40,145 nucleotides of DNA from a virus: the IMG/VR virus record IMGVR_UViG_3300021509_000003; one strand, 5' to 3'. The notes beneath the pieces were generated by a model. It worked only from the letters and a program-made list of their open reading frames with translations. It was not told the DNA's origin and searched no databases. Position 1 is the stretch's first letter. Each line of letters opens with the position of its first letter. This document shows, in pieces, positions 4,466 through 38,086 of the stretch. The translations under genes were made by a program, and so were the position numbers.

Positions 4466-4482
4466 TTGAAACCCGCAAAATG

Positions 4483-4519
4483 CCTGCCCGACGGCAGGCG
4501 GGCCTGCCCGCAGACGGGC
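4483..4519 (-). terminator. Two tandem GC-rich hairpins immediately 3' of gene 4519-5271
   Basis: cctgcccgacggcagg (4483-4498, 6-bp stem) and gcccg-caga-cgggc (4506-4519); a short U-tract follows on the minus-strand RNA. Confidence 0.5.
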
Positions 4520-9583: not shown

Positions 9584-9637
9584 CCCGCCTGCCTGTCCCC
9601 GCCTGCCGTCGGGCAGGGGCAGACAGGCCTGCCTGTC
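9584..9637 (-). repeat. Composite GC-rich palindromic element between 9640-9999 and the next gene
   Basis: Contains cctgccgtcgggcagg (9602-9617) nested in a longer imperfect inverted repeat; same architecture as 36704-36752. Confidence 0.6.
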
Positions 9638-12390: not shown

Positions 12391-14174
12391 ATTATTCCCT
12401 CCCGCCTGCCTGTTTGCTCAACAGATAAGCCTACCTGCCTGTTCGGCAGATAGGTCTGTCCAATAGGCAAGCTATTTTTAGCCTTTTTTTCTTCTTGAGC
12501 CTTTGCCCAATTTTTGACCCATTGTTTGGCCTGGCTCACTGTCCATTTATCTTTATCAAAAATAAAAGAAATAATTTTTTTACAATCTATACAGTAACGG
12601 GCTTGTATTCCCTTTTTTTCACTGATTGTGATAGTGCGAATTTCATGACCTTTATGTTTTCCCTCTTCTCCAGGAACCGGCACATGAATTTTATTTTCTG
12701 TTACTTCAACTCGAGTTTGAATATCCTGAAATTTTACTTGCATTTGTGATATATCAGTGAGACCTAAATCATTTAAATATTGTTTTTCTTTTGCTCTTTG
12801 ATTGGCTATTTCTTGCCAATCTTTACCTTTAACAGCACATTCATCCGCCAAGCTAGTTAAACCAAGTTGCAGTTCTAACTTCTTTGCCTGAGCTTCTTTC
12901 AATGGGTCAACCCAATCAAAACCTTTGAAAATCCAGCGGTGTTTCAGCCAATTTTCAGGAGCCTTAATAAATCCCTGAACCTGCAAATAGCCGCTCACGA
13001 TGCCATATTTCACAAAGTCTTCCCAGATAGGTTGGAGAAAATATCTTTCAAGTGCTTTCCGGAATGGAAGCATATAATCCCGCAGTTCTAATTCACTATG
13101 CCGAGTAGAAGAATAATTTACATCTGATTTATCACCACTTATTTGTTCATATGAAAGATTTACGCCTCGGCCCATGCCCCGCAAAATAATTTTTACAAAA
13201 TCTGGGAAAGTGCTGCCTGGACGTTTAGGATTGATAACTTCTATTTCTTCTCCTGGGCCAAGATGTTCTACCATTCCAGGAGCTATCTCTATTTCTCTTT
13301 CTTTTGTTTCTGTATTTTGAGTGCTAGTTTGCATGCGTCCCCATATATCAGATGTCTTTATAATTATTCCAAAACAGGCAGCTACTTTGGCAGACATTAG
13401 TTCTGCTTCTAAAAGTTCTGAAAGGTGATAAGCGAGGGGAATAACAGGAGCTAAAAGTGGAATGCCCATCAATTGTCCAGGACGGCGAAAAGGAGAAAAG
13501 TGAATAATATCTTGGGCAGGAATGCGAATGGATTGTTGTTTCAAAATGAATGGATTAGAAATATCTACTTTCCAGAAATGATAAGCAACTATTTTACCTG
13601 TTTGGTCTATCTCAAAACCATTCCAGTTCCAATTATCCTTTTTAGGCGTGCCCATACCACATAAACGGCTATATTCCAGTGCTTCAAGACAAAAAGGGAA
13701 ATCTCTGGATTTATCTATAACTTTGTGGAAAAAAATGCCTCCATCTAAAAATAATTTTAAAATTGCCAGCCGTTCCAGGTCTCCAAAATGAAATTGGTCG
13801 TAATAATCGGCTACTCGTGCCCACTGTTTAAATACATTCTCAGCCTTAGAATTAAATTGTTCGTTATCTGTGAGAGCCTGTGGTGTGCTGCCTCCACCAA
13901 TCATGCGGTTAACAATCAGGTCGATACTGCCACGAACAAAAGATTCATTCCAATATAGATAATTGGCTCTAGCTCTGACTGTTTGCAGGTCTGAGAAATT
14001 ATCATTTGGACCTTCTGCGCTGGTAGTCCAATATGAAGACATGCGGTCTTTAGAAGCAGCTTTTAAATGCCTGCGAACTACTTTTTGAAGATATTCCCGC
14101 TTTGCCTTCCATTTTGGGAAAGCTGCCCAAAAAAAGGCGTCCAGGGCTTTTGAAATGGATTTTAAAATGTTCAT
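12381..14174 (-). CDS. Portal protein, lambda gpB family
   Basis: LSYEQISGDKS... and VKGKDWQEIANQRAKE align with lambda gpB VSYEQLSRNY... and KRGDDYQEIFAQQVRE. Follows a gpW-like gene with ATGA overlap. Confidence 0.85.
   Translation of the reverse strand: MNILKSISKALDAFFWAAFPKWKAKREYLQKVVRRHLKAASKDRMSSYWTTSAEGPNDNFSDLQTVRARANYLYWNESFVRGSIDLIVNRMIGGGSTPQALTDNEQFNSKAENVFKQWARVADYYDQFHFGDLERLAILKLFLDGGIFFHKVIDKSRDFPFCLEALEYSRLCGMGTPKKDNWNWNGFEIDQTGKIVAYHFWKVDISNPFILKQQSIRIPAQDIIHFSPFRRPGQLMGIPLLAPVIPLAYHLSELLEAELMSAKVAACFGIIIKTSDIWGRMQTSTQNTETKEREIEIAPGMVEHLGPGEEIEVINPKRPGSTFPDFVKIILRGMGRGVNLSYEQISGDKSDVNYSSTRHSELELRDYMLPFRKALERYFLQPIWEDFVKYGIVSGYLQVQGFIKAPENWLKHRWIFKGFDWVDPLKEAQAKKLELQLGLTSLADECAVKGKDWQEIANQRAKEKQYLNDLGLTDISQMQVKFQDIQTRVEVTENKIHVPVPGEEGKHKGHEIRTITISEKKGIQARYCIDCKKIISFIFDKDKWTVSQAKQWVKNWAKAQEEKKAKNSLPIGQTYLPNRQVGLSVEQTGRREGIICR
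12401..12460 (-). repeat. GC-rich palindromic element at the portal/capsid junction
   Basis: gcctgcctgtt (12404-12414) and cctgcctgttcggcag (12434-12449); lies in the 3' tail of the portal ORF and upstream of the capsid RBS. Confidence 0.55.
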
Positions 14175-21678: not shown

Positions 21679-22428
21679 TTAATCAGAATATGGCATAATC
21701 CGCCCATATTTTTCACTTCCTTTAAAATCAGTGTTAGGGGACATTTCCTTTTTTTGTTGTTTATCCATTGCCTTCCCGTCTGTCCGACAGGTAATCCCTA
21801 GCGACTTCTTTATTTCCCACACTATCTGTGTCTCTAGCGACCTTAGTTCTTCAGCTGCTTTCTGTTCTAACTTCTCGAATGTCTCCGGGGATACGCTAAA
21901 ATCAACCCAAATCCGATATTTACTTACAGCAGGTCCTTGTTTTCGCTGTATAGGTGGTAATTGGCCCCTCTTTTTCAACCTTTCATAACAAGCAGCGCAA
22001 AGCCCTCTAGCCTTATGGGTCTTTCTCCGCCCACATTCTGCACAAATTACTATTTTCTTACTTTCTGCCATTATCTTCTCCTTTCTCTTATAAACTTCTT
22101 CACAGAGCACTTTCCACTCTGTGCAATCTTCACATACCCCAGGCATAGGAAATATATTAGGGTTTGTCCATTGGCCAATTTCTTTCAGCCTGGGCCTTTT
22201 TCTGTTTGCCTCACATTGTTTAGGACTAATCCGTCCTAAACCATGCGGGCATATGAAAGTATTGGCCTCTAGCCAACGTATCTTATCTTCGTCAACCTGC
22301 CCAACTCCTGAACCACTTCTTGGCGGGTTAGATGTATCTAAATTTCCTTTTATTGGTTGATATCCTTTTTCTCTCTTATATTTCTTTGCTTTCCCCAAAG
22401 GATGCTGCTCTTTACTCAATTCAATCAT
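21679..22428 (-). CDS. Cys-rich hypothetical protein (multiple CxxC pairs)
   Basis: 249-aa ORF with CEDC, CAEC and CAAC pairs; basic. Confidence 0.4.
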   Translation of the reverse strand: MIELSKEQHPLGKAKKYKREKGYQPIKGNLDTSNPPRSGSGVGQVDEDKIRWLEANTFICPHGLGRISPKQCEANRKRPRLKEIGQWTNPNIFPMPGVCEDCTEWKVLCEEVYKRKEKIMAESKKIVICAECGRRKTHKARGLCAACYERLKKRGQLPPIQRKQGPAVSKYRIWVDFSVSPETFEKLEQKAAEELRSLETQIVWEIKKSLGITCRTDGKAMDKQQKKEMSPNTDFKGSEKYGRIMPYSD

Positions 22429-22525
22429 AATAATTCATCATATCTCCAAGCATCCAAAAGAAATGCCCAGAAAATTTGTTTAATTACCTTTTTTAATTGA
22501 GAGGCCCCCTCCCTTTTTGGGTTCA

Positions 22526-22717
22526 TTATGAAACCTCTTTCCTTCCAAATTCCTTAAGAATGCACTCCATATAATAGAGTGCTCCCATGATTCCTAATTC
22601 CCTTTGTTTAGGTAGTTTTTTTTCTAGCTCTAATTCCTTCTCTAACTTTTCATGCCACTCTCTTTTTTTTCTCTCCCATATTTCTTTGCTTTCCCCAAAA
22701 ATTGCTTTTTTCTTCAT
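22526..22717 (-). CDS. Hypothetical small protein
   Basis: 63-aa ORF. Confidence 0.3.
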   Translation of the reverse strand: MKKKAIFGESKEIWERKKREWHEKLEKELELEKKLPKQRELGIMGALYYMECILKEFGRKEVS

Positions 22718-22731
22718 TTCTACTTTTTTAG

Positions 22732-22817
22732 CGGAGGGGGCAGGATTTGAACCTGCAGAGTTTTTAAAAACTCGTGGTTCTCAAGACCACTGCTTTAAAC
22801 CACTCGGCCACCCCTCC
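22732..22817 (-). tRNA. tRNA-Ser (anticodon UGA), type II with long variable arm; CCA not encoded
   Basis: Manual fold: acceptor GGAGGGG/CCCCTCC, anticodon stem GTGGT/ACCAC with loop CTTGAGA, variable arm GAGTTTTTAAAAACTC, T-arm GCAGG-TTCAAAT-CCTGC, discriminator G. D-stem is weak (GCC/AGC). Confidence 0.8.
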
Positions 22818-22849: not shown

Positions 22850-23137
22850 TCATTTTGAACTTATTTCTTCTAATTCTAGTATTTCCTCCCTTTTTTTCTT
22901 ATGTAAAGCACAATACCCTCCGCCATATCGCATGCTTATTCGACAACCCACGCAATCTTTCACTTCTTTGTTAAATTGAATCCATTGAGCTTCAATTAAC
23001 TTTTTAAGTATTAAAGTTATGGCATCTATCCTCTTTTCCAACTCGTTTATTTTTTCTTGAATCTCCATTTTTTTTCCTTTACCTATAAAATAATCAACAC
23101 CAAAAAAAAGAACACTGCCCAAAAAACAACACTCCAT
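22850..23137 (-). CDS. Small zinc-binding protein
   Basis: 95 aa with coiled coil and C-terminal CVGC...C..H cluster. Confidence 0.4.
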   Translation of the reverse strand: MECCFLGSVLFFGVDYFIGKGKKMEIQEKINELEKRIDAITLILKKLIEAQWIQFNKEVKDCVGCRISMRYGGGYCALHKKKREEILELEEISSK

Positions 23138-23187
23138 AAAATTGCCCTAAACACTCCCATTTTCTTTTCCTATTTGTATTTTAAAAT

Positions 23188-23222
23188 GGGCCGGTATTTT
23201 CTAACCCGACAACCCCCGGCCC
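23188..23222 (-). terminator. GC hairpin downstream of gene 23239-23760
   Basis: Inverted repeat GGGCCGG (23188-23194) and CCGGCCC (23216-23222); A/U-rich sequence follows on the minus-strand RNA. Confidence 0.35.
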
Positions 23223-23238
23223 CTGGGCGGCTAAGAGT

Positions 23239-23760
23239 TTAAGGAGGTGTAGGTATGCCAGCCAACTTTTGTCCTTTATTTTTCCTTAATGCTTCCACCA
23301 TAAGCCATAATTTTGTTAAAGCAGTTAATGCCTCGTAATATTCTTTTTCAAACTGTTTGCTTTCGGCATTAGAAACATTTCCATCTGCTACTACCTCAAC
23401 AAACTTATTCAGACACTCAGTGCTCTCTTTGAGTGCCTGGCTAACAAGTATTAAAGCTTTCTTATCCACTTTCCCTTCTATTTTGGGCTGTGGCACTAAA
23501 AGAAATCCGGCTTGATTAACTAAATATTCCAAAACTTCTTTTCCAACTTGTTTAGTCAAATAAGGCAAAAGAAAAGCAGGCAAATTATTGAAAGGATTTT
23601 CAGGATTGAGCCATTTATACATAGTATCTGGGCGAATGCCCAGGTGGGAAGCTACTCCATTGATTGGTAATCTTTTCAAATAGAAAACATCATTTAAAAA
23701 CCGCTTGAATTGTCTTGACCATTCTACATGATCCCAATTAATGTAGCGGATATTACCCAT
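23239..23760 (-). CDS. HTH DNA-binding regulatory protein
   Basis: INGVASHLGIRPDTMYKWL HTH near the N-terminus; overlaps the Cro-like gene by 8 nt. Confidence 0.4.
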   Translation of the reverse strand: MGNIRYINWDHVEWSRQFKRFLNDVFYLKRLPINGVASHLGIRPDTMYKWLNPENPFNNLPAFLLPYLTKQVGKEVLEYLVNQAGFLLVPQPKIEGKVDKKALILVSQALKESTECLNKFVEVVADGNVSNAESKQFEKEYYEALTALTKLWLMVEALRKNKGQKLAGIPTPP

Positions 23761-23986
23761 TATCTACTTCCTTGTGAAATTTGGATTTATGATAACAATT
23801 TTTTCTGGTAATCTTTTGTAAAAGATGAGGAAAATCTTGTGGTGATGCCCAAAATTCCAATGGAAATTCAGAAATCATTGCAAGTTTTCGAGCAACAGTG
23901 AGGGATGGTTTCTTGCGGTTGTGCAAAATATCATTTAAATGCTGGGGTGTTATCCCAGCTTTTAATGCTATGTCTTTTTGTTTCAT
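23753..23986 (-). CDS. Cro-like XRE-family HTH regulator
   Basis: DIALKAGITPQHLNDILHNRKKPSLTVARKLAMI is an XRE HTH; divergent from the repressor gene. Start lies 10 bp from the -10 hexamer, so the mRNA is probably leaderless. Confidence 0.6.
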   Translation of the reverse strand: MKQKDIALKAGITPQHLNDILHNRKKPSLTVARKLAMISEFPLEFWASPQDFPHLLQKITRKNCYHKSKFHKEVDNG

Positions 23987-23995
23987 TGTAAAATG

Positions 23996-24035
23996 ATTAT
24001 ACAGCTATTAGTTTAATTTGTCAAGGGGGAAATTA
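23996..24035 (-). promoter_or_regulatory. Perfect consensus sigma70-type promoter on the minus strand (copy 1 of a 40-bp exact repeat)
   Basis: Minus strand reads TTGACA (plus 24019-24024), 17-nt spacer, TATAAT (plus 23996-24001). Identical 40-mer at 28110-28149. Confidence 0.6.
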
Positions 24036-24049
24036 TACTAAAAGGGGAA

Positions 24050-24784
24050 TTGCAAATTAATATAGCTAGAGATTATATTGAAAATGTGAAAAAAAGAAAA
24101 AGATACTCATTGACATATCAATATTGGCTAGCTGCTTTCAAAAAAGAAATTAAAAAAAGACCACGAGGATTTCAAAAAGAATTAGCAAAACGATTACATA
24201 AAACAGCAGTACATATCAATGATATTCTGGGGCAAAGAAAAGGAGCCTCTTTAGAATTACAAGAAAAAATTGCTCAAGATCTTGGTTATTCATATAAAGA
24301 AATGATAGAAATAGGAAAACAAATTTTAGAAGAAGCAAACTTTCAACCTATTTGTTATGAAACTATCTATTTAAAAACAGAAAAAAGACCAAAAGAAAAA
24401 ATAGGGCAACGACTAAAACAAGCTAGATTAGCATTAAACCTCACCCAAAAACAATTTGCGGAACGCTTAGGACTTAAATGGCATCAAATTAAAGATATGG
24501 AATCAGGGAAGCTATTAATTAAGCCAGAAATAGCTGAACAAATAGAAAAAATTTTCTCTATAAATTTTCGTTGGCTTTTAATAGGTGAAAATGAAATGTT
24601 TTTGAAACCAGAAATTAGAGAACCTAAAGCACTTTATAAAACATTAAAAAATGATAGAGATATTGTTACTGAAAAAATAATAACCATGCTTCAAGACATG
24701 TCAGATGAGCAAAAACGAGAGATTCTACGGTATATTGAAGAAAAGAAACTTTTAACAGACTTGCTAAAAGAACGCAGGAAATAG
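24050..24784 (+). CDS. Repressor-like protein with two XRE-type HTH domains
   Basis: Two HTH units: ELAKRLHKTAVHINDILGQRKGASLELQEKIAQDLG and IGQRLKQARLALNLTQKQFAERLGLKWHQIKDMESG. No in-frame ATG near the 5' end, so start is TTG at 24050 or GTG at 24089. Confidence 0.55.
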   Translation: MQINIARDYIENVKKRKRYSLTYQYWLAAFKKEIKKRPRGFQKELAKRLHKTAVHINDILGQRKGASLELQEKIAQDLGYSYKEMIEIGKQILEEANFQPICYETIYLKTEKRPKEKIGQRLKQARLALNLTQKQFAERLGLKWHQIKDMESGKLLIKPEIAEQIEKIFSINFRWLLIGENEMFLKPEIREPKALYKTLKNDRDIVTEKIITMLQDMSDEQKREILRYIEEKKLLTDLLKERRK

Positions 24785-24860
24785 AATTAAATGTGGGTGG
24801 GTACATTTTGGGTACAAAATTGCCTCTATTTTTCACTTTATTGCTTTTTTTTGCTTCTTA

Positions 24861-24889
24861 TTGACATTTATTAAAATACTTACTACACT
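24861..24889 (+). promoter_or_regulatory. Sigma70-like promoter (TTGACA-17-TACACT) pointing into the tRNA-like att segment
   Basis: TTGACA at 24861-24866, 17-nt A/T-rich spacer, TACACT at 24884-24889. Confidence 0.35.
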
Positions 24890-24904
24890 TAAAAAATATG
24901 ATTT

Positions 24905-24946
24905 GGAGAGATGCCCGAGAGGCCGAAGGGGCACGACTGGAAATCG
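24905..24946 (+). other. attP candidate: 5' half of a type II tRNA (Ser, anticodon GGA)
   Basis: Acceptor GGAGAGA, TG, D-arm CCC-GAGAGGCCGAA-GGG, anticodon stem CACGA, loop CTGGAAA, then TCG; tRNA-likeness ends there. No T-arm or 3' acceptor strand. About 40 bp past the integrase stop. Confidence 0.45.
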
Positions 24947-24988
24947 GCTAGAAAAGTTAATAATAATAAATATTTTAGGAGATAGTGG

Positions 24989-26014
24989 TTACCCTGTGGG
25001 TCTTTTTAGTTTTTTAATTGCATTAATTAAATGTTCTTTTGTTAAATGTGAATAAATAAGTGTAGTAGATATATCACTATGCCCTAAAAGTTCTTGCACT
25101 GTTCTTAAATCCACCCCCGCCATGATAAGTTTGCTAGCAAAAGTATGTCTAAGACAATGTAAAGTGTAACCTTCAAGACCTGCTTGTTTAAACCAGGTAG
25201 AGAATTTTTTACTTACATATTTAGGGTCAAAACTTTTAAATATTTTGCCAATTTTAATAACTTCCGGATCATTATTCATTTCTTGGATAATTTCTTTCAA
25301 TTCAGAACTAATTGGTACATATCTTATTTTCTTGGTTTTGGTTTTTCTAAAAAGGATAAAACCATCTTTTATGTCTTGCCAATTAAGATTAAGCACTTCG
25401 TTTCTTCTGGCTCCTGTATTTAGATAAAATTCAAATAGCCAACGCCATTGTGTGTCTTTGATTTGCTTTCTCACAGCATTTATTTGTTTATCTGTAAGAA
25501 ATTTAAGCGGTTTTTCCTGGATTGATAGTTGTTTATAACCTGATAATTGATTATACTTTAAATATCCCCATTCAACTGCTTTTGAAAAAGCAGCCTTTAT
25601 GGTGCGGATGTCTATATTACATGTAGCTCTGGATTGGCCTTGTTTAAGCCTCATGTTAACTAATTTATCTAAATGTTTCTTATTGATTGCTTTAATATCT
25701 AAATTGCCAGTAATCTGTCTGAGTAATCTAAAAGCATTCTGAGCAATACGATAGCTGGCTTCAGATAAATATTTTTCAATATAGTCAAGATATTCTTGAA
25801 CAAAATCGTCTAGTCTAACAGTTCTTTCAAGAAGGCTAAGTTTTCTTAATAAATATTCCCTTTTTGCTTTGGTGAAAATAACCTGGGCCTCAGCTTTATT
25901 TTTTGTGCCGAGGCTTTTTTTCCGCCGTCGGCCATTCTCAGACCAATAAATATACCATACGCCATTGTCTCTCTTTTTTAGGCGCATGATTATGCTTAGC
26001 CTATCAGGAATCAT
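24989..26014 (-). CDS. int: Tyrosine site-specific integrase
   Basis: C-terminal catalytic region HCLRHTFASKLIMAGVDLRTVQELLGHSDISTTLIYSHL with the R...HxxR...Y signature. Confidence 0.9.
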   Translation of the reverse strand: MIPDRLSIIMRLKKRDNGVWYIYWSENGRRRKKSLGTKNKAEAQVIFTKAKREYLLRKLSLLERTVRLDDFVQEYLDYIEKYLSEASYRIAQNAFRLLRQITGNLDIKAINKKHLDKLVNMRLKQGQSRATCNIDIRTIKAAFSKAVEWGYLKYNQLSGYKQLSIQEKPLKFLTDKQINAVRKQIKDTQWRWLFEFYLNTGARRNEVLNLNWQDIKDGFILFRKTKTKKIRYVPISSELKEIIQEMNNDPEVIKIGKIFKSFDPKYVSKKFSTWFKQAGLEGYTLHCLRHTFASKLIMAGVDLRTVQELLGHSDISTTLIYSHLTKEHLINAIKKLKRPTG

Positions 26015-26017
26015 TTG

Positions 26018-26806
26018 TCAAATTCCTAAAATTTTTTCTAATTTAGGTAATTCCTGTAATTTGGGGAAATTAGGGAATTCTTGCAATTCAGGTAAATCAG
26101 GATATGCCCTAAAAAGATTATCCTTTAAAAATACTGGTATATTATTTTCTTTTGCTTTTTTAATTATTTTCTCTACCCACTCACGCTTAGGCGGTTTATA
26201 TGGATTTGTTTGAGCACCAATAATAACCCAATTAGGAAATTGCTCCCCTTCAAAATTATTAAAATAATCCACAAAAACTTCAGCTAGTAAGGGTTCAAAA
26301 GAAATGAACTTAATATTGTCATTTTTCAAAAATCGTCTTAAAACTACATCCCTTCTTTCTCCATAAGTAATTGTAACCCCTAACCAGCAATTCTTTGGGA
26401 ATTTATATTTTGTATATGTCCCAGGAAATTTAGTAAGGAATTGAAAAATGTGTTGTGGATAACGTTCAATCTTATCTAGCACAAAAGACATCCATTCTTT
26501 TTTCCACCATCTAATATCACTCATAGAATTTACAAAAATCCGTAAACGTTTTAAGGGATATAAAAGTTTGCCATAATTTTTAAACATAAAAATAGGTTCA
26601 AATTGTTTTATTTGTGCCCGTAAAAGAGGTTTTGTAAGAGGTGAAGTTTCAATATTATGCCTTTTCCTATATTCAAATTCTGCATCTGCAATTTTCTTAA
26701 AAAATCTTTTGGCTATTTTACGAGCATAACAATACTCACACCCTGTTTTACATCCCCAAACTGGGTTCCAAACCCTATCACACCATTCTATTTTTGTTTT
26801 ACCCAT
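26018..26806 (-). CDS. Gp37/Gp68-like protein with N-terminal CxxxCxxC cluster and C-terminal PELQEFP repeats
   Basis: N-terminus TKIEWCDRVWNPVWGCKTGCEYCYA; C-terminus DLPELQEFPNFPKLQELPKL encoded by DNA repeats. Family name is from memory of the motif. Confidence 0.4.
   Translation of the reverse strand: MGKTKIEWCDRVWNPVWGCKTGCEYCYARKIAKRFFKKIADAEFEYRKRHNIETSPLTKPLLRAQIKQFEPIFMFKNYGKLLYPLKRLRIFVNSMSDIRWWKKEWMSFVLDKIERYPQHIFQFLTKFPGTYTKYKFPKNCWLGVTITYGERRDVVLRRFLKNDNIKFISFEPLLAEVFVDYFNNFEGEQFPNWVIIGAQTNPYKPPKREWVEKIIKKAKENNIPVFLKDNLFRAYPDLPELQEFPNFPKLQELPKLEKILGI
26021..26087. repeat. Three copies of a 13-bp AATTCYTNNAATT motif at ~27-bp spacing just upstream of int
   Basis: aattcctaaaatt (26021), aattcctgtaatt (26049), aattcttgcaatt (26075). 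Confidence 0.5.
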
Positions 26807-27122
26807 CTTTTTCTATTTCCTTTGTTGGTTTTTTAAAGTATTGCATAACACTATCATACCAGTTTATTTTTCTTATTTCTTCTTTTGTAAACCTCAGTTC
26901 TCCTTCATGATACCGAAGAAGATTAATTAGCTCAGAGAAAGCCTTCCCTATTTTGTTTAATTTAATTCTTCCAACGGGGTCATCAGTAATTTTTTCAGGG
27001 CATTCTCGCATTTGTGTTGCTAAAGCCCATAATCTCATAATCACTAAATGTTTATTCATACGCCAATCTTTATTTTTAATATTTCCTGTATTACTTCCTC
27101 TTTGTATCTTTATTTCTTTCAT
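26799..27122 (-). CDS. Hypothetical protein
   Basis: 107-aa ORF in the lysogeny module. Confidence 0.4.
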   Translation of the reverse strand: MKEIKIQRGSNTGNIKNKDWRMNKHLVIMRLWALATQMRECPEKITDDPVGRIKLNKIGKAFSELINLLRYHEGELRFTKEEIRKINWYDSVMQYFKKPTKEIEKDG

Positions 27123-27126
27123 AGTT

Positions 27127-27468
27127 TTACCATTCTGTTATTACTTCTACATTCCATCCCCACTTCGCTAACCAACTTTGTAAATAACGCTGAAGATTAT
27201 GGGCGGTGGGGTCAGCTTCATCTACATAAGCAATCCACCTTCCATCCAACTCTTCTACTTCAAAACATTTCAGGTCTCCCCAATTAATAGCGTCCATATC
27301 AAGACTAAGTTTTTGAATTAACTCCTCGTTAACCGCTTTTATTAGATCTTTATCAGGAACATAAAGACTAGTTATTAACCAGTTAACTAAAGATTGAATA
27401 ATCTTCTTTGCGTCCTCTTTTCTCCTTAATCCTAACCGAACAAACCGGTCAAATTCCTTTTTTTTCAT
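27127..27468 (-). CDS. Hypothetical protein
   Basis: 113-aa ORF. Confidence 0.4.
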   Translation of the reverse strand: MKKKEFDRFVRLGLRRKEDAKKIIQSLVNWLITSLYVPDKDLIKAVNEELIQKLSLDMDAINWGDLKCFEVEELDGRWIAYVDEADPTAHNLQRYLQSWLAKWGWNVEVITEW

Positions 27469-27604
27469 TTCTTGGTTTATATAAATAACAATGATGTTTC
27501 AAAAGATAGCCAAAAATAGAACAACACTTTCCTTTTTTATCCCAATGGGAACATTTATAACATCTCATTAAAACTCCAAAGTTTATTACCTTTTGCCTCA
27601 TTTT

Positions 27605-27811
27605 TTATATTTCTGTCAATATTTTTTTAAGTCTATATTCTTGTTCGCTAGTGTCTTCCATGAATTTTTTTAGCTCTTTTATGCTAAAATAAATCGACCT
27701 GCCTATTCGTTTGTGGGGCACATATGGGCGAACCGCTTTTTTAAAAGTATTTACGCTCATACCACAAAAAGCAGCAGCCTGTTTTTGTTTTATGAAATTT
27801 TTATTTTTCAT
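27605..27811 (-). CDS. AlpA/Xis-like HTH DNA-binding protein (excisionase candidate)
   Basis: QAAAFCGMSVNTFKKAVRPYVPHKRIGRSIYFSIKELKKFM is typical of AlpA-type HTH. Confidence 0.5.
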   Translation of the reverse strand: MKNKNFIKQKQAAAFCGMSVNTFKKAVRPYVPHKRIGRSIYFSIKELKKFMEDTSEQEYRLKKILTEI

Positions 27812-28001
27812 AATATTTTACCAATTCCAACACTACATTTATATGTAAAATTTTATGTTGATAAGAAGGCAGGAATGAATTTGCATAAACCTTTCTCACA
27901 AATTTAACATAGTTTTTATTCTTGATTCCCCTAAAAGCTTGATATCCTGTTAACTGAGCATATGTTTTACATGCCTTTTTCTCTTTATAAGTCAACTTCA
28001 T
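27801..28001 (-). CDS. Hypothetical small protein, first gene downstream of promoter repeat copy 2
   Basis: 66-aa ORF, 11-nt overlap with the next gene. Confidence 0.35.
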   Translation of the reverse strand: MKLTYKEKKACKTYAQLTGYQAFRGIKNKNYVKFVRKVYANSFLPSYQHKILHINVVLELVKYYEK

Positions 28002-28109
28002 TTATTACCTATTTTTTAAAATTAAAATAACACCTCCAAATATCCACAGATAAAGGCAAATACTCAAAAATTCTAACATTTCTATTACCCCCTTTCGTAA
28101 ATTATCAAA

Positions 28110-28149
28110 ATTATACAGCTATTAGTTTAATTTGTCAAGGGGGAAATTA
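28110..28149 (-). promoter_or_regulatory. Perfect consensus sigma70-type promoter (copy 2 of the 40-bp repeat)
   Basis: Identical 40-mer to 23996-24035; about 110 bp upstream of the start at 28001. Confidence 0.55.
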
Positions 28150-28243
28150 ATCCAATAGTTATATTAAAGAAAAAATTTATTCATATTTAGCCGTAGAGAC
28201 AATTTCTTGTATAAGAAGGTAGTTTATGTCATGTTAAGGCAAA

Positions 28244-28260
28244 CCTGCCCGCAGACAGGC
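28244..28260 (-). terminator. GC-rich palindrome at the end of the tail operon
   Basis: cctgcccgcagacaggc; differs at one position from the 17-mer at 4503-4519; followed by UUU on the minus-strand RNA. Confidence 0.4.
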
Positions 28261-28276
28261 AAATATGAAGGTGTTT

Positions 28277-28606
28277 TTACGCTGGTTCATTGCAACTCAT
28301 AAGTTTTTTGAATATACTAGGCTTGCATGGATAAAATCCATCTTCACCTTTAACTATATAGTCTCCTATATTGGCTTTCCTTGCTCCTTTAGGTGTAAAT
28401 ATCTTCAATCCATTTTTTCTCACCACGTTTTCAAACTCTTCCCAAGTCCACTTTCTTGCTGAGGGGTGCAATCCTGTAAAGCCAATAACTTCTCTTAAAT
28501 TATCACCAGTCCATTGTATTGCCTCTATTACAATCGGCTTTTTTCTATACTTTTTAATTGGCATAATGTTCCTCCTGTTAAAGGTATTTTTACGCTGCTC
28601 CTTCAA
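28277..28606 (-). CDS. Hypothetical protein (last gene of tail operon)
   Basis: 109-aa ORF. Confidence 0.4.
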   Translation of the reverse strand: MKEQRKNTFNRRNIMPIKKYRKKPIVIEAIQWTGDNLREVIGFTGLHPSARKWTWEEFENVVRKNGLKIFTPKGARKANIGDYIVKGEDGFYPCKPSIFKKLMSCNEPA

Positions 28607-30953
28607 AATGTCCTGCTGTGAGATATGTATTTGCTACTCCTGGGATTTGTCCTAACCAAAGCAAGTTGCCATCAAAATCAAAGAAGGCAAAAATCCTTGC
28701 TATTATTTCTTCTTGAAAAACATGTTCTGTCCAATCATTAGGATATCCTTCTTGATACCATTTTTCGTCAAGTTCTTTGCTGATTTGCACTATTGCATAT
28801 GTTATTAATATTTTTTCTTCTCCAATAGCTATCCCTACATCTCTAATTTCTGTGCCGCTGCATCCCCAACTTGAGCCATAATAATTTCCATTATATTTTA
28901 AAGCTTCAACAAAAATATATTCTGCGTCTGTAATGTTTTGTATTTCTTTATCAGCAAAATCACATGTAATCTTCCATTTTCCTTGTTCCTCATCGTATGC
29001 ATACCCTATACCAAGTCTTGTAAATCCCGAATTTAAAATATTTGCTCTGTGTCCTTCTGATTGCATCCATTCATTAAAAAGTGTTTCAATTGCTTCTTCT
29101 GTCAAATCTTCATTAACTACTTCTCCTATGTTTTCTCCCCATACATTATATATTATTCCCTGTTCATCATATCGTTGTTGAGGATTTTTACCATCACTAC
29201 CAGTATGAGAGAAAAAATGATTTCTAGCCATATCATTTGAATGCCTTTGTGCGACTACATCTAATGCCCCATCTTCTTCAAGTGCTTCCAATCCTTCATC
29301 AGCTCTTGCCTGATTATGCAATTCTAAAAATTTACTTCTGATATTATCACTTTGAAGTTGTGCTACTTCTTTTGGGATTTCCAGCCTTACTACTTTGCTT
29401 CCTATTTTTACAAAATATTCAAGTTTGAATTTCTGGAATGCCTTAAATTCATCCCAATAATCATCATTATCACTATCTACAAGTTCATTCCAATAGTCAA
29501 AAGCTCTGCTGACAGTATAAACACAAACTTCAATCCAATCCATTCCTATTTGTTTTCTACAATAATTTAAGATAGTTGCATGACAGGGATGGGGAAAGCG
29601 TTCTGATCCCATATCCAGAATTGCAGGATATTTAGCACTATATGTAGTAGTTCCAGCTACAGTGCGAATTTTTGTTTGATGTTCTACATCTATATATCTC
29701 ACAGGAACAGGCATTGCATTTTCTACAGGAGTAGCTGTCCAGTCTTGATATGCTTCGGTCCAACAATCAAAATTGATTTGTAATTTTGCTTCCAGTGTTC
29801 GATGATTATCTTCGTCATTTATGGTCATTACATTTTCTATACTGTGTGGGTAAACCGTGCCATTTACAATGTCAAATCTATGTTTACGAATTCGTTTGAC
29901 AAATGGTGACATCATATGTGGAGAGGCTTCAATTAAATTTATTTCCCAGTCATGATCATCTATAATGTCTGTATATATAGGAATAAAACTAAATATAGTT
30001 TCAAGACTTATCTCACCTCCCATTAAAGGGTAATCTGGTATTTCATTATTAAATTCTTCTTGATGTTCATTCACATAGTTTTGAACATATTGTTTACAAA
30101 AATCTTCTAAATTTATGTCTTGTTCTTTTGTTTTATTGAGTAGATTAAAAGCCTGAAGTTTCATTTTGTTATAATCTGCCCAATATGTCCAGGACCCGTT
30201 TTGCACTTCTTTTATTTTTAAATCAAAATCACTTTTGATAATTATCAACCTGTCATCGCTTACCACTGCAGAATCTACAAATCCATATCCTGTTCTAACA
30301 AATAGTGATGTCATATTATTGTCTCGTTCTCTTCTGTTTGATGCCCATCCCCCATATTCTCTAAACATATCAGGAAGCCAGCCTGAAACATCTACTTCTG
30401 CGATTTGAATTTTCGCAAAAGGGCGCCTTTCACAGGTTCTCATAGTATCAAGCACAGTCGGCTCGTAGTTTATTGAGATGTATTCATAGAAATTTTTTAT
30501 ATCATAGAAAGGCTCGCCTAGCAGAAATTTATATTTTCCTTGATGCTCCCACCAATGGAAAAGGTGAGTTTTGGGCACAACAATTCCTTCGTTCTTAAAC
30601 TCCTTTTCCAAATCAATCAGTTTTTCCCTCAACTCCTCTTTTATTCTAAAATCATTTAATCCGCTTAATTGGACTACTTTCCCACTCTCAAGGCAAAGAC
30701 AAAAATAGCTCTTTGCGCCTCCTCTATATCTTACAATCAAAAGCATACTTCCTTCAGGGCAACTTTCTTGTGGCCTCACTGCTCCAGCAGAAATAAAAAC
30801 CCTTCCCTTTCTACTTGTATGAAGCAAAACAAGGTCGTTAAGGACCACTACATAGTCTCCTACTCTAAATTTGTATTTACTTGCAGGACGCCTTATATGG
30901 CCATCGCTACATAAAATTAATCCATTGTCTAAAACTTTAACTATATAAATCAT
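28590..30953 (-). CDS. Large tail-associated protein with C-terminal CAP/SCP (YkwD-like) domain
   Basis: C-terminal third: HNQARADEGLEAL...HSNDMARNHFFSHTGSDG...WGENIGE...WMQSEGHRANILNSGFTRLGIGYA matches the CAP signature. Confidence 0.55.
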   Translation of the reverse strand: MIYIVKVLDNGLILCSDGHIRRPASKYKFRVGDYVVVLNDLVLLHTSRKGRVFISAGAVRPQESCPEGSMLLIVRYRGGAKSYFCLCLESGKVVQLSGLNDFRIKEELREKLIDLEKEFKNEGIVVPKTHLFHWWEHQGKYKFLLGEPFYDIKNFYEYISINYEPTVLDTMRTCERRPFAKIQIAEVDVSGWLPDMFREYGGWASNRRERDNNMTSLFVRTGYGFVDSAVVSDDRLIIIKSDFDLKIKEVQNGSWTYWADYNKMKLQAFNLLNKTKEQDINLEDFCKQYVQNYVNEHQEEFNNEIPDYPLMGGEISLETIFSFIPIYTDIIDDHDWEINLIEASPHMMSPFVKRIRKHRFDIVNGTVYPHSIENVMTINDEDNHRTLEAKLQINFDCWTEAYQDWTATPVENAMPVPVRYIDVEHQTKIRTVAGTTTYSAKYPAILDMGSERFPHPCHATILNYCRKQIGMDWIEVCVYTVSRAFDYWNELVDSDNDDYWDEFKAFQKFKLEYFVKIGSKVVRLEIPKEVAQLQSDNIRSKFLELHNQARADEGLEALEEDGALDVVAQRHSNDMARNHFFSHTGSDGKNPQQRYDEQGIIYNVWGENIGEVVNEDLTEEAIETLFNEWMQSEGHRANILNSGFTRLGIGYAYDEEQGKWKITCDFADKEIQNITDAEYIFVEALKYNGNYYGSSWGCSGTEIRDVGIAIGEEKILITYAIVQISKELDEKWYQEGYPNDWTEHVFQEEIIARIFAFFDFDGNLLWLGQIPGVANTYLTAGHFEGAA

Positions 30954-32787: not shown

Positions 32788-35528
32788 GATAATAATTGCT
32801 CCTGTGGAGTTGGTGTTGGGGGAGGTGGTGAAGGTGGTTCAGGAGGCGGGACAACAGAAGGACAAAGGCTTACTTCAGCCTTTACCCAGTGGTGTTCAAG
32901 TGTAGTTTCTACAGCAAATCCTTCCTTTTCATGCATTAAAATCATATTTTTAAATTTAATGTTTCCATTCTCATCATAATTAAATATATCCTGCCAATAT
33001 TCTGGTTTTTTCTTCCAAACTAAACTTTCAAAAACAGCCGGGTAATAATATTGCCCATATCTAAAACACGGTTTGATATAACCTAACAAATTGCCTTCAT
33101 AATCAAAAAATAATGGTCCTTGATGCTTTTGTATATAGTTAGATTGAGACCCTAGCCATTCTTCATATTGCCAGATAGCTGCATATGGCCGTAATATAAA
33201 AAAGTCCCTCCCGCAATACCATAGACGCCATTCGTTAGAAGTTGGTTTATCCCCTGCCATGATTTGCGTTTCTGAAATCAAACTTAAGAATTCATCATAT
33301 TTCAATAACCACAAGCTTCCCGGATCTTTTCTAGCTAACATATATAAATATTCACCATCTGTGTTTAAAGAAAACACAGATTTATATTCATTTTTCAGCC
33401 AAGTACTTATTGGAATATGATATTGTTCATTTTCCCCGCCTGCCTGTCGGGCAGGGTTCCATATTATTGTCATTCCTGTTACTTCGTCTGTAATTGAGGA
33501 AGCAAAATAAAATATTTTTTCTTTTAGCTTAATTAGTGCAAAAGCAGGGTCATTTAACTCCTGGGCAGGAGGTTTATTTTCAATGTTTATTTCCCAAACA
33601 ACTTCTTTTTTCATTAAATCATAACAAAAAAGCTTCGGATTATCTGAATCTATATCAGCAAAACCAAAAGCTGATGTATTCTCCACAAAACTTATATTTC
33701 CAGGCAAATTAGGGAGGATTCCCCAGTCTGATGTGCTACTTTCTCCTATATATGATATAGCTTCCCATCCATTCCCAATTACAACCCTCAATGGGATTTG
33801 AAAATCTGCTTTCTGTAAGTCAGTTCGGGATTTTACTGCATAATCAACAAATTCAACACTGCATCTAATACCATCTTGAGCCAATGTCGTTGTTGAGGAG
33901 ACTCCACATAACACATTATCTGCAAAAGATAATGTAGTTTTAACACCCTCTAAATTTGGGATAGACAATAAAATTTGTGATATAAGTCCTTGTTTTTCGG
34001 CATTTAAATTAATTTTAGCCTGTATTGCCTTCCAATCTGTAGTATATTTTATGGCAAATGGCTGTTCTATATATCTTTCATAATCCGTTGTAATAGTAGT
34101 AGGGTCAACTAATTCATTATCAACAGCATTATCTTCCCAGGCCTCAGTAATTACAAAAGCCCTTTCTCCTACTTCATAGGCAGGTCTAAAATTACCTATA
34201 TATACTTTATGACAATCATATCTATCCCAACAAAAGCCCGTAAATCTTCGCTGCCCATATTGACTAGAGCTGTAATAATGCCAGATAGTGTGCCCATCTT
34301 CTAAATTAATATTGTAATCTTCAACAAAAAATTCTGTGCAATCTTGACATACAGCACTTCTATACAGCCCAATTCTAATTTCACCGTTTGAATTTCTTTT
34401 AAATAAATCAATACCAATTGCTTCTTCTGTCCCACCAACCTTAAAAGTCTTTCCATCTACAGCTATTTCTTCCCCATCCGTATTAACAGGCATATTTTTG
34501 ACCCATTCAAATTGCTCTTTTTCTTTGTCATACAGAGCAAGTCGAGTTTGGGCAGGATTGCCATATCGCCATGCATATACAATATATTTATCACAAGCAC
34601 TGATATGTATTTCTGAGACATATTCTCCCCATATTTCATCAAGCGGCGGAGAACAAGCCACTCCTTCCTTGTCCTGCATAATATCAAGCGTAATTTTTGA
34701 AGCTACACCATCTTCGGCAAATGCAGCTTTTGAAGCCACACCATCTTCAGCAAAAGAACATTTACAGGGGATTAAAGATTGATAGCAAGGCGCCAGAAAG
34801 GTTGAAGCTTTTATTCCTGCTGTTTTTTCTATATTTGTGTCATCTGTTTTGTATGAATATACCTGCTGGGGCCGATAACTTCCTTTTGCACATATTAATA
34901 CATCTACTCTTTTTTGACTAAGTGCCACATCTACAGCATGATAATCTGCATTATTAAACTTCTCCTCAACAATTGTTTTCTTTAGATTGCCTTCTAAGTC
35001 ATAAATAAAAACAATCCTTCTATTTGGCTCTAAAATTGCGATTTCTTGATTTTCAGGGTCATAATCATATCTTGCCAATCTAGCAAAATATTCAAGCGCT
35101 CCTGAATGATATAACTGTTCTTGATATGTATAATTGGTCCCTTGTTGTTTTTTCCATTTCGTAATCGCCCCAAAATTTGAAAGAGTATAAAGATAATCAT
35201 TTCTATAAAGATAGTCAGGCTCCTTAAGATGGTCACAGTTTGTTTTTGTGCCATTTATACCTGTAGATAAAAGTAGAGCATCACCTTTTACGCCTGATTT
35301 CCCTACATTCAAAAGATAGCAGCTAGATTTTGCTGCCTCAACCAATATATATGTATGTGATTTTACACCAGAATAAACAGAAGGAAGAACAAGTATTGCT
35401 TGTGATTTTACGCCTTGTCTTTTACTTTCACCTTCACTGAGAGTGCAAAAGTATCCTTTATATTTTCTCTTTGTTCTTTCTCCAATGCGAGCCTTTTTAT
35501 TAGCCTGTATTCCTTCATATTCTGCCAT
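32784..35528 (-). CDS. Large tail fibre/host-specificity candidate
   Basis: 914-aa Trp/Tyr-rich ORF, the largest in the tail block; Pro-rich C-terminus, internal 11-aa tandem repeat, and an in-frame palindrome copy at 33439-33455. Confidence 0.45.
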   Translation of the reverse strand: MAEYEGIQANKKARIGERTKRKYKGYFCTLSEGESKRQGVKSQAILVLPSVYSGVKSHTYILVEAAKSSCYLLNVGKSGVKGDALLLSTGINGTKTNCDHLKEPDYLYRNDYLYTLSNFGAITKWKKQQGTNYTYQEQLYHSGALEYFARLARYDYDPENQEIAILEPNRRIVFIYDLEGNLKKTIVEEKFNNADYHAVDVALSQKRVDVLICAKGSYRPQQVYSYKTDDTNIEKTAGIKASTFLAPCYQSLIPCKCSFAEDGVASKAAFAEDGVASKITLDIMQDKEGVACSPPLDEIWGEYVSEIHISACDKYIVYAWRYGNPAQTRLALYDKEKEQFEWVKNMPVNTDGEEIAVDGKTFKVGGTEEAIGIDLFKRNSNGEIRIGLYRSAVCQDCTEFFVEDYNINLEDGHTIWHYYSSSQYGQRRFTGFCWDRYDCHKVYIGNFRPAYEVGERAFVITEAWEDNAVDNELVDPTTITTDYERYIEQPFAIKYTTDWKAIQAKINLNAEKQGLISQILLSIPNLEGVKTTLSFADNVLCGVSSTTTLAQDGIRCSVEFVDYAVKSRTDLQKADFQIPLRVVIGNGWEAISYIGESSTSDWGILPNLPGNISFVENTSAFGFADIDSDNPKLFCYDLMKKEVVWEINIENKPPAQELNDPAFALIKLKEKIFYFASSITDEVTGMTIIWNPARQAGGENEQYHIPISTWLKNEYKSVFSLNTDGEYLYMLARKDPGSLWLLKYDEFLSLISETQIMAGDKPTSNEWRLWYCGRDFFILRPYAAIWQYEEWLGSQSNYIQKHQGPLFFDYEGNLLGYIKPCFRYGQYYYPAVFESLVWKKKPEYWQDIFNYDENGNIKFKNMILMHEKEGFAVETTLEHHWVKAEVSLCPSVVPPPEPPSPPPPTPTPQEQLLS
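34697..34762. repeat. Two tandem 33-bp units inside the 914-aa gene
   Basis: tgaagctacaccatcttcggcaaa... repeated with about 3 mismatches; encodes SKAAFAEDGVA twice. Confidence 0.6.
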
Positions 35529-36701: not shown

Positions 36702-37049
36702 TTACCTGCCTGTTCCCTGCCCGACTGGCAGGCGGGGGCAGACAGGCTTGCCTAGTTTTAAAACATTTTTATATGGAAAATATGAAAGACTATAAAAGAC
36801 CTCAAGCACTTTCTCTCCTTTAAATATGTATCCCCTAACACTATCTCCGAACACTCCTCCAAATTCCACTCCTATTATTTGTCCTTTTCCACCCATACTT
36901 GCTATTGCATGCCTTACAAAATAATAGCTATCTGCATTCGTGATTTTTTTGCCATTTAGTTCAAGCTCAACAATAGGTTTAGAAATATCAGGAAAATAAC
37001 CATCTTTTTCTGTCCATACACTACCATCTATTAACGTTGCTTTCCACAT
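36702..37049 (-). CDS. Hypothetical tail protein
   Basis: 115-aa ORF with AAGGAG RBS; its last 12 codons run through the palindromic element. Confidence 0.4.
   Translation of the reverse strand: MWKATLIDGSVWTEKDGYFPDISKPIVELELNGKKITNADSYYFVRHAIASMGGKGQIIGVEFGGVFGDSVRGYIFKGEKVLEVFYSLSYFPYKNVLKLGKPVCPRLPVGQGTGR
36704..36752 (-). repeat. Composite GC-rich palindromic element (paralogue of 9584-9637)
   Basis: Contains cctgcccgactggcagg (36716-36732); flanks parallel those of 9584-9637. Confidence 0.6.
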
Positions 37050-37708: not shown

Positions 37709-37720
37709 TTTAATCCTCCC

Positions 37721-37760
37721 CGCCTGCCTGCCTGCCAGTTGGGCAGGTTAAGCAGGCCTT
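37721..37760 (-). repeat. GC-rich palindrome CCTGCC-agttg-GGCAGG between tail genes
   Basis: cctgccagttgggcagg at 37731-37747, preceded by gcctgcctg. Confidence 0.55.
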
Positions 37761-37762
37761 AG

Positions 37763-38086
37763 CTATTCTAAAATTATCAGGCTTGCCCCACCATCTCTAA
37801 AATCAGTGATAGGGGGTAATTCTTTTATTGACAGACTTAAAAAATATACATTATAATTTCTTCCATAAATATCAGTATATGTTGTTTTTTTTGCTACTTT
37901 GCTTTTTAAAGTATCCATATCACTTTTTTTAATCCTAAAAGATATATCAATTCTTTTTTTTGCTTTCTCTGCATATTGCACAACAGTTGAACCACAAACC
38001 AATTCGTGTTCTGTTGCTTCCCCCTCCAGTCCCTCATCAATTGTCTTTACATCATATATAGACACACCAGCCAATGTAGCAATCAT
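37763..38086 (-). CDS. Hypothetical tail protein
   Basis: 107-aa ORF. Confidence 0.4.
   Translation of the reverse strand: MIATLAGVSIYDVKTIDEGLEGEATEHELVCGSTVVQYAEKAKKRIDISFRIKKSDMDTLKSKVAKKTTYTDIYGRNYNVYFLSLSIKELPPITDFRDGGASLIILE

Follow-up and report, generated by a model that had tools for sequence, protein, structure and literature searches.

Two exact copies of a predicted full-consensus promoter form a candidate PR-/PL-like pair in an uncultured temperate phage

Phage lambda has two strong early promoters, PL and PR, with near-identical repressor/Cro operators (OL and OR) lying over their -35 and -10 elements. One of these promoters drives cro-cII, while the other drives an operon that ends in xis-int and runs towards attP. 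The lambda repressor and Cro are HTH proteins that use the same sites. In coliphage 186, CI acts at pR and at distant sites (pB and FL/FR); the switch promoters of this phage are face to face, int belongs to the lysogenic operon together with cI, and CII is of the CP76 type. An example of a phage regulator translated from a leaderless mRNA is lambda cI expressed from PRM.

The window analyzed here is a 40,145-nt stretch of viral DNA (IMG/VR record IMGVR_UViG_3300021509_000003) that represents a circular genome of 40,018 bp, closed by a 127-bp terminal assembly overlap. Nearly all of its genes are on the minus strand. Within it, the sequence ATTATACAGCTATTAGTTTAATTTGTCAAGGGGGAAATTA (the 40-mer) occurs as two exact copies (Table 1), and, with the terminal overlap set aside, the genome has no longer exact repeat. 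No third site was found in the window, even when up to 3 mismatches were allowed. The copies are direct repeats, 4,114 bp apart, and their edges are abrupt: in the 40-bp blocks flanking the repeat, the identity between copies drops to 15/40 and 17/40, against a background of 11 +/- 3. Rfam gave no match at either copy. We considered whether the copies are att-type direct repeats and rejected this, as both are inside the circular phage, the candidate attP is elsewhere, and the repeat is a perfect promoter.

Table 1. Features of the switch region and related elements (window positions unless a contig is named)
Feature	Position	Strand	Remarks
GCCTGCC/GGCAGGC motifs	4480-4519, 9587-9634, 12400-12417, 28237-28260, 33426-33456, 36707-36753, 37710-37738		
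CII-like regulator, Phage_CP76	23239..23760	-	second gene of predicted P1 transcript
cro-like gene, 77 aa, HTH_3	23753..23986	-	ATG 9 nt after -10, without SD
P1, copy 1, proposed PR-like promoter	23996..24035	-	-35 TTGACA 24024-24019; -10 TATAAT 24001-23996
Dyad B of copy 1, candidate operator	23996..24017	.	ATTAAAC-N8-GTATAAT (minus strand), over spacer and -10
Dyad A of copy 1, candidate operator	24014..24035	.	TAATTTC-N8-CAAATTA (minus strand), over -35
Repressor-like CI, 244 aa, XRE	24050..24784	+	two HTH regions, helical C-terminal tail
Candidate attP core	24905..24946	+	between int and cI stops
Tyrosine integrase	24989..26014	-	last gene of predicted P2 operon, towards attP, convergent with cI
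orf50, orf113, orf107, DUF5131 protein	26018..27601	-	middle genes of predicted P2 operon
Excisionase-like HTH_17 protein, 68 aa	27605..27811	-	
orf66	27801..28001	-	second gene of predicted P2 operon
orf24, 24 aa, hydrophobic, MLEFLSICLYLWIFGGVILILKNR	28005..28079	-	strong SD AAAGGGGG 8 nt upstream
P2, copy 2, proposed PL-like / excision-integration promoter	28110..28149	-	-35 28138-28133; -10 28115-28110
Dyad B of copy 2, candidate operator	28110..28131	.	
Dyad A of copy 2, candidate operator	28128..28149	.	
Sister-phage PL/PR promoters with dyads	L004 3556-3596, 5338-5404; L005 2475-2515, 4257-4323		

Read on the minus strand, the 40-mer is TAATTTCCCCC-TTGACA-AATTAAACTAATAGCTG-TATAAT. Both copies match the sigma-70-type consensus at 12 of 12 positions, this being the E. 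coli consensus, which may differ from that of the host, and the 17-nt spacer falls within the 16-18 nt expected of such promoters. Only 0.04 perfect TTGACA/TATAAT sites are expected in the window, compared to 3 that were seen. Both copies are intergenic and upstream of co-oriented genes; copy 2 sits in a 197-bp gap downstream of the tail genes, approximately 30 nt from the next gene, orf24. These data support the prediction that each copy is a strong sigma-70-type promoter feeding the genes that follow it. An earlier note on this DNA had reported the exact repeat, the full-consensus promoter on the minus strand of both copies, the position of copy 1 inside the 63-bp gap between divergent Cro-like and repressor-like genes, and the closeness of its -10 to the Cro-like ATG. 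Our analysis bore out all of these points: the gap spans 23987-24049, the two genes have HTH_3 and XRE matches, and 9 nt separate the -10 (ending at 23996) from the ATG (23986). The note also proposed a probably leaderless cro mRNA and control of both transcripts by the same repressor or operator; the first proposal is strengthened by variants and the second gains indirect support, as described below.

The third perfect site (TTGACA-18-TATAAT, 37828-37857, plus strand) is antisense within minus-strand structural genes and could be an antisense promoter or a chance occurrence; the ORFs neighboring it on either strand had no PHROG matches. A separate motif family, GCCTGCC/GGCAGGC, has 16 copies where 2.4 are expected in this genome of 35% GC. 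Some copies form inverted pairs, there are intergenic clusters, and several closely precede the SD and ATG of a structural gene. One such G+C-rich element lies 90 bp upstream of copy 2, and we rejected it as a terminator since its fold was unconvincing (z = -1.0).

Two overlapping 22-bp dyads, A and B, both with a 7-N8-7 geometry, together cover the whole 40-mer, and the outer edges of the two dyads are the ends of the repeat. The arms of dyad A are perfect over 6 bp and match at 6/7 over 7 bp, those of dyad B match at 6/7, and the two dyads differ in their half-sites. With half-site centers 15 bp apart, this geometry is longer than that of classical HTH operators. The same dyad-symmetric sequence overlaps both promoters, as would be expected of a shared operator, with statistical backing that is post hoc. 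When the sequence was shuffled with the hexamers fixed, 0 of 200,000 shuffles gave the 7-N8-7 tiling geometry, and when gaps of 0-12 were allowed, 0.13% had 7-bp-arm dyads touching both ends; since both tests were chosen post hoc and the sequence is A+T-rich, these statistics are suggestive rather than formal. No further copies of dyad A or B were found elsewhere in the genome.

At copy 1, the -10 ends at 23996 and the cro ATG starts at 23986, with no SD upstream, and a canonical +1 at P1 would leave a cro leader of 3 nt. In a variant contig (L014), two substitutions create ATGATG, and the first of the two ATG codons coincides with the canonical +1, 7 nt past the -10. Similarly, the cro ATG of a sister phage, described below, falls on the 8th nt past the -10 and also lacks an SD. 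The cro mRNA is therefore predicted to be leaderless or to have a leader of 3 nt or less, a reading supported by the fact that three different sequences share this geometry, in which the ATG is 7-10 nt past the -10. Like lambda cI transcribed from PRM, the window cro would start within about 3 nt of its predicted 5' end without an SD; in contrast to PRM, the predicted leaderless gene is the lytic-side cro.

Downstream of CII are early genes and a tRNA-Ser, followed by the large terminase, portal and a protease-major head fusion, all on the minus strand; past the circle junction, the tape measure follows, and then tail proteins as far as 28277. The phage-encoded tRNA-Ser(TGA) (22731-22817, minus strand) was the sole Rfam match. 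A segment of approximately 320 bp (22494-22816) that contains it together with a 63-aa ORF is absent or replaced in the variant contigs L014 and L011. We also observed that two neighboring early genes, of 249 aa and 63 aa, have a 41-nt direct repeat at their 5' ends (22366-22406 and 22666-22706; 88% identical, with 24 nt exact), which suggests that part of a gene was duplicated.

The repressor-like gene, cI, is the only clear plus-strand gene. It starts 14 nt from copy 1 and its end is convergent with int. The N-terminal HTH of CI (residues 42-75) is 44% identical to residues 3-36 of Cro (E = 3e-6), and a central HTH_3 domain spans residues 122-176. The C-terminal tail of approximately 45 aa is conserved, helical and common to two otherwise different regulators, P0004 and P0005; the relatives of CI have only this tail or the central domain in common with it. 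P0004 and P0005, homologues of the C-terminal part of CI, were set aside, their upstream regions being unrelated. An S24 peptidase domain is absent from CI, so that induction is probably not via RecA-stimulated self-cleavage. The AlphaFold model of CI had a mean pLDDT of 59.6, with values below 50 for the N-terminal HTH, and its N-terminal half was of too low quality to be informative. The start codon of cI is TTG, and an SD-like AAAGGGG is only 2 nt upstream of it. A promoter scan found no plausible plus-strand promoter for cI.

A minimal divergent cro-like/cI-like pair was also seen in a MAG contig (L003, 600-1600), where a tRNA and host NrfD/cytochrome genes enclose it. This pair may be what is left of a prophage, and its cI shares 49% identity with the C-terminal half of the window CI.

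The tail genes ahead of copy 2 include those for the tape measure and a CAP-domain tail protein. The first ORF after P2 is orf24, which may encode a small membrane peptide and whose stop overlaps the SD/start region of orf66. The repressor and Cro genes flank P1, and P2 is positioned to drive the operon containing xis and int. The gene map of the earlier note was right, and its claim that copy 2 follows the tail genes and heads towards int held up; on the other hand, it took the 66-aa ORF to be the first one downstream, whereas orf24 (28005-28079) precedes it, and it did not note the tandem layout that brackets the lysogeny module. Homologues of the integrase (48-53% identity) belong to unrelated integrated elements that have only the xis-int-att end in common with this phage, and they were uninformative for the promoters.

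The gap between int and cI is 200 bp. It contains a segment that, compared by eye with the E. coli tRNA sequence, resembles the 5' half of tRNA-Ser(GGA), up to the anticodon loop. This segment is a candidate attP core, although a partial Rfam search of the fragment returned no tRNA score. On the phage circle int, the candidate attP and cI all lie between the two copies of the 40-mer. With the candidate attP in this position, the prophage would hold the cassettes at opposite ends, about 36 kb apart, and this separation makes a lambda-style 2.3-kb OL-OR looping unlikely in the lysogen. A search of GTDB genomes found nothing for the promoter core or the CII alignment, and it yielded no prophage copy, no attL/attR and no direct assignment of a host.

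Close variants of the window are approximately 98.5% identical overall, and their 40-mer cassettes are unchanged. At this level of identity, descent alone would leave a 40-mer unchanged in roughly half of cases, and its conservation is uninformative. Searching metagenome contigs with the promoter core recovered three near-identical contigs only; two of them (L014 and L016) carry the copy-1 context and one (L015) the copy-2 context. L015 is a mosaic in which the genes on either side of copy 2 are deleted or replaced, orf66 being swapped for an unrelated 94-aa ORF, while the intergenic region, the promoter and orf24 (with one amino acid change) are kept at approximately 99% identity. The promoter thus moves together with orf24. 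In three Logan contigs, each from a different run (L011, L012 and L013), position 1 is 30 nt inside the repeat, as a k=31 assembly graph breaks at a 40-bp repeat; this is an indirect sign that those samples contain the repeat as well. A megablast of 23000-29000 against GenBank phages gave no match, IMG/VR had no relatives for the exact 40-mer, CI, CII or the tail proteins, and we found no description of this phage in the literature.

The strongest comparative evidence is from a sister phage group (L004-L010), which encodes a CII that is 69% identical to that of the window and a different repressor of 158 aa. Like the window phage, it has exactly two perfect TTGACA-17-TATAAT promoters, with an operator dyad in the spacer, a predicted leaderless cro and a CP76-type CII. 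In contrast to the window promoters, its PL and PR are divergent in a lambda-like layout, their dyads are 13 bp long (AGAC-N5-GTCT), and the two promoters have only the hexamers and the dyad in common. In a 9-kb sister contig all five of these dyads are on PL/PR, where 0.04 would be expected; three are at PR and two at PL, with one inside each spacer. Perfect early promoters with shared spacer operators thus appear to be a habit of the lineage, for which the window phage would use a fully duplicated cassette. The sister phage also has an outer-membrane beta-barrel moron between PL and the repressor operon. One source names the sister CII homologue as Candidatus Desulfofervidus auxilii, and on the basis of that name the phage host is probably Ca. 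Desulfofervidus, a thermophilic sulfate reducer. Ca. Desulfofervidus is a syntrophic partner in anaerobic methane and alkane oxidation and, to our knowledge, no phage switch has been described for it.

Taking these observations together, we favor, with moderate confidence, a model in which the two 40-mers are duplicate promoter-operator cassettes that form a PR-/PL-like pair under one repressor, and probably under Cro too. We infer the transcription starts, the binding of the repressor and Cro, and the co-regulation of both copies by the same repressor from the sequence. Shared control is supported indirectly, because the dyads tile the 40-mer and because the sister promoters share five operator dyads. 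In this model, P1 would be the PR equivalent, expressing the leaderless cro, cII and the replication genes and then the whole 36-kb lytic set. P2 would be the PL equivalent, with a transcript that runs in the direction of attP through orf24, orf66, the excisionase-like gene and a further four genes to int. In the lysogen, CI would sit on the dyads at both cassettes and occlude RNA polymerase, keeping P1 and P2 off; upon infection or induction, the two promoters would fire together. Cro, a paralogue of the N-terminal HTH of CI, would probably bind a subset of the sites and later turn both promoters down. With about 36 kb between them in the prophage, each cassette would have to be repressed alone, which fits the presence of an identical, complete operator set at each.

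Several other explanations of the repeat were weighed against these duplicate cassettes. One possibility, a chance match or an assembly artefact, could be entertained given that the source is a metagenome assembly with a 127-bp terminal overlap. It is effectively refuted: 0 of 100 shuffles had such a repeat, and both copies were found again, at 99.99% identity, in a 17-kb contig assembled independently from another sample (L001), so the repeat is real. The copy-1 and copy-2 contexts were each recovered separately in further samples as well. Another possibility is that both copies are real strong promoters whose 40/40 identity is historical, arising from recent copy-paste or gene conversion, and that they share no operator; the repressor would then act elsewhere or at one copy, and P2 would be constitutive or regulated differently. 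This would be consistent with the visible mosaicism of the phage around copy 2, with the sister PL and PR, which have the hexamers and 13-bp dyad in common rather than the whole promoter, and with our finding no divergent relatives in which the copies could co-vary. However, the copied segment would need to end precisely with the final base of the -10 and with a dyad's outer edge, the 63-bp cro-cI gap contains no other operator-like repeat, and an unrepressed full-consensus promoter for xis/int would destabilise the prophage. We consider a historical duplicate of this kind unlikely.

The direct repeats could also serve mainly as a recombination substrate. They are direct and exact, they lie 4,114 bp apart, and what they flank is precisely the set of lysogeny genes: on the phage circle they bracket a 4.1-kb cI-attP-int-xis module, and in the prophage they would bracket the 36-kb lytic region. 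Recombination would give either a deletion phage that is virulent or, in the host, a small remnant with cI and int that is immune, and both the breaks of short Logan contigs within the repeat and the small cI/cro-like pair beside a tRNA and host genes in the L003 MAG are compatible with such events. Nevertheless, 40 bp offers homologous recombination a poor substrate, the contigs that the promoter core retrieved (L014, L015 and L016) all lack a recombinant junction, and this explanation leaves the perfect promoter anatomy unaccounted for while being compatible with promoter function. We regard recombination as the main role of the repeats as very improbable. A more specific arrangement, which we regard as doubtful, is that each cassette is a bipartite operator bound by one CI oligomer, with the Cro-like N-terminal domain on one dyad and the central XRE domain on the other. 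Cro would then compete at one dyad only, and the identity of the copies would be kept since integration separates them by about 36 kb, with no OL-OR-type looping. A side possibility within this arrangement is that the repeats occasionally recombine, shedding the lysogeny module or the lytic genes.

Viewed as duplicate cassettes under one repressor, the window promoters resemble those of lambda in being paired early promoters with shared candidate operators, one for a cro-cII operon and the other for an xis-int operon. They lack the divergent layout of a lambda-type pair: both are on the minus strand with int-attP-cI between them, in tandem and 4.1 kb apart, whereas the lambda promoters diverge around cI. 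Unlike lambda, the whole 40 bp is identical between the copies, both hexamers are perfect, and two 22-bp dyads take the place of three 17-bp sites. In addition, the candidate attP of the window phage lies between the copies, and its CI has two HTH regions and no RecA-cleavable S24 domain. As in 186, one repressor is proposed here to serve both the lytic promoter and a distant second promoter, and the gene directly following the cro/apl position codes for a CII from the same Pfam family. A switch of the phage 186/P2 type was nonetheless rejected, as the window cI and cro diverge, int and cI lie on opposite strands, and only the CII family is common to both. The switch promoters of 186 face each other and its int is in the lysogenic operon, while the window cI and cro point away from each other and int belongs to a separate predicted operon, that of P2.

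By this comparison, the working principle appears to be the same as that of lambda PL/OL and PR/OR, an ordinary design in an unusual layout rather than a new principle. The analysis provides a testable regulatory map for an uncultured temperate phage, comprising two promoters, two candidate operators, a two-HTH repressor, a predicted leaderless cro and a candidate attP. As the cassette has the E. coli consensus, it is directly testable in E. coli reporters, and it might be a compact repressible promoter part. In concept, the arrangement would be a variant of lambda OL/OR in which the promoters are in tandem and would be parted by integration.
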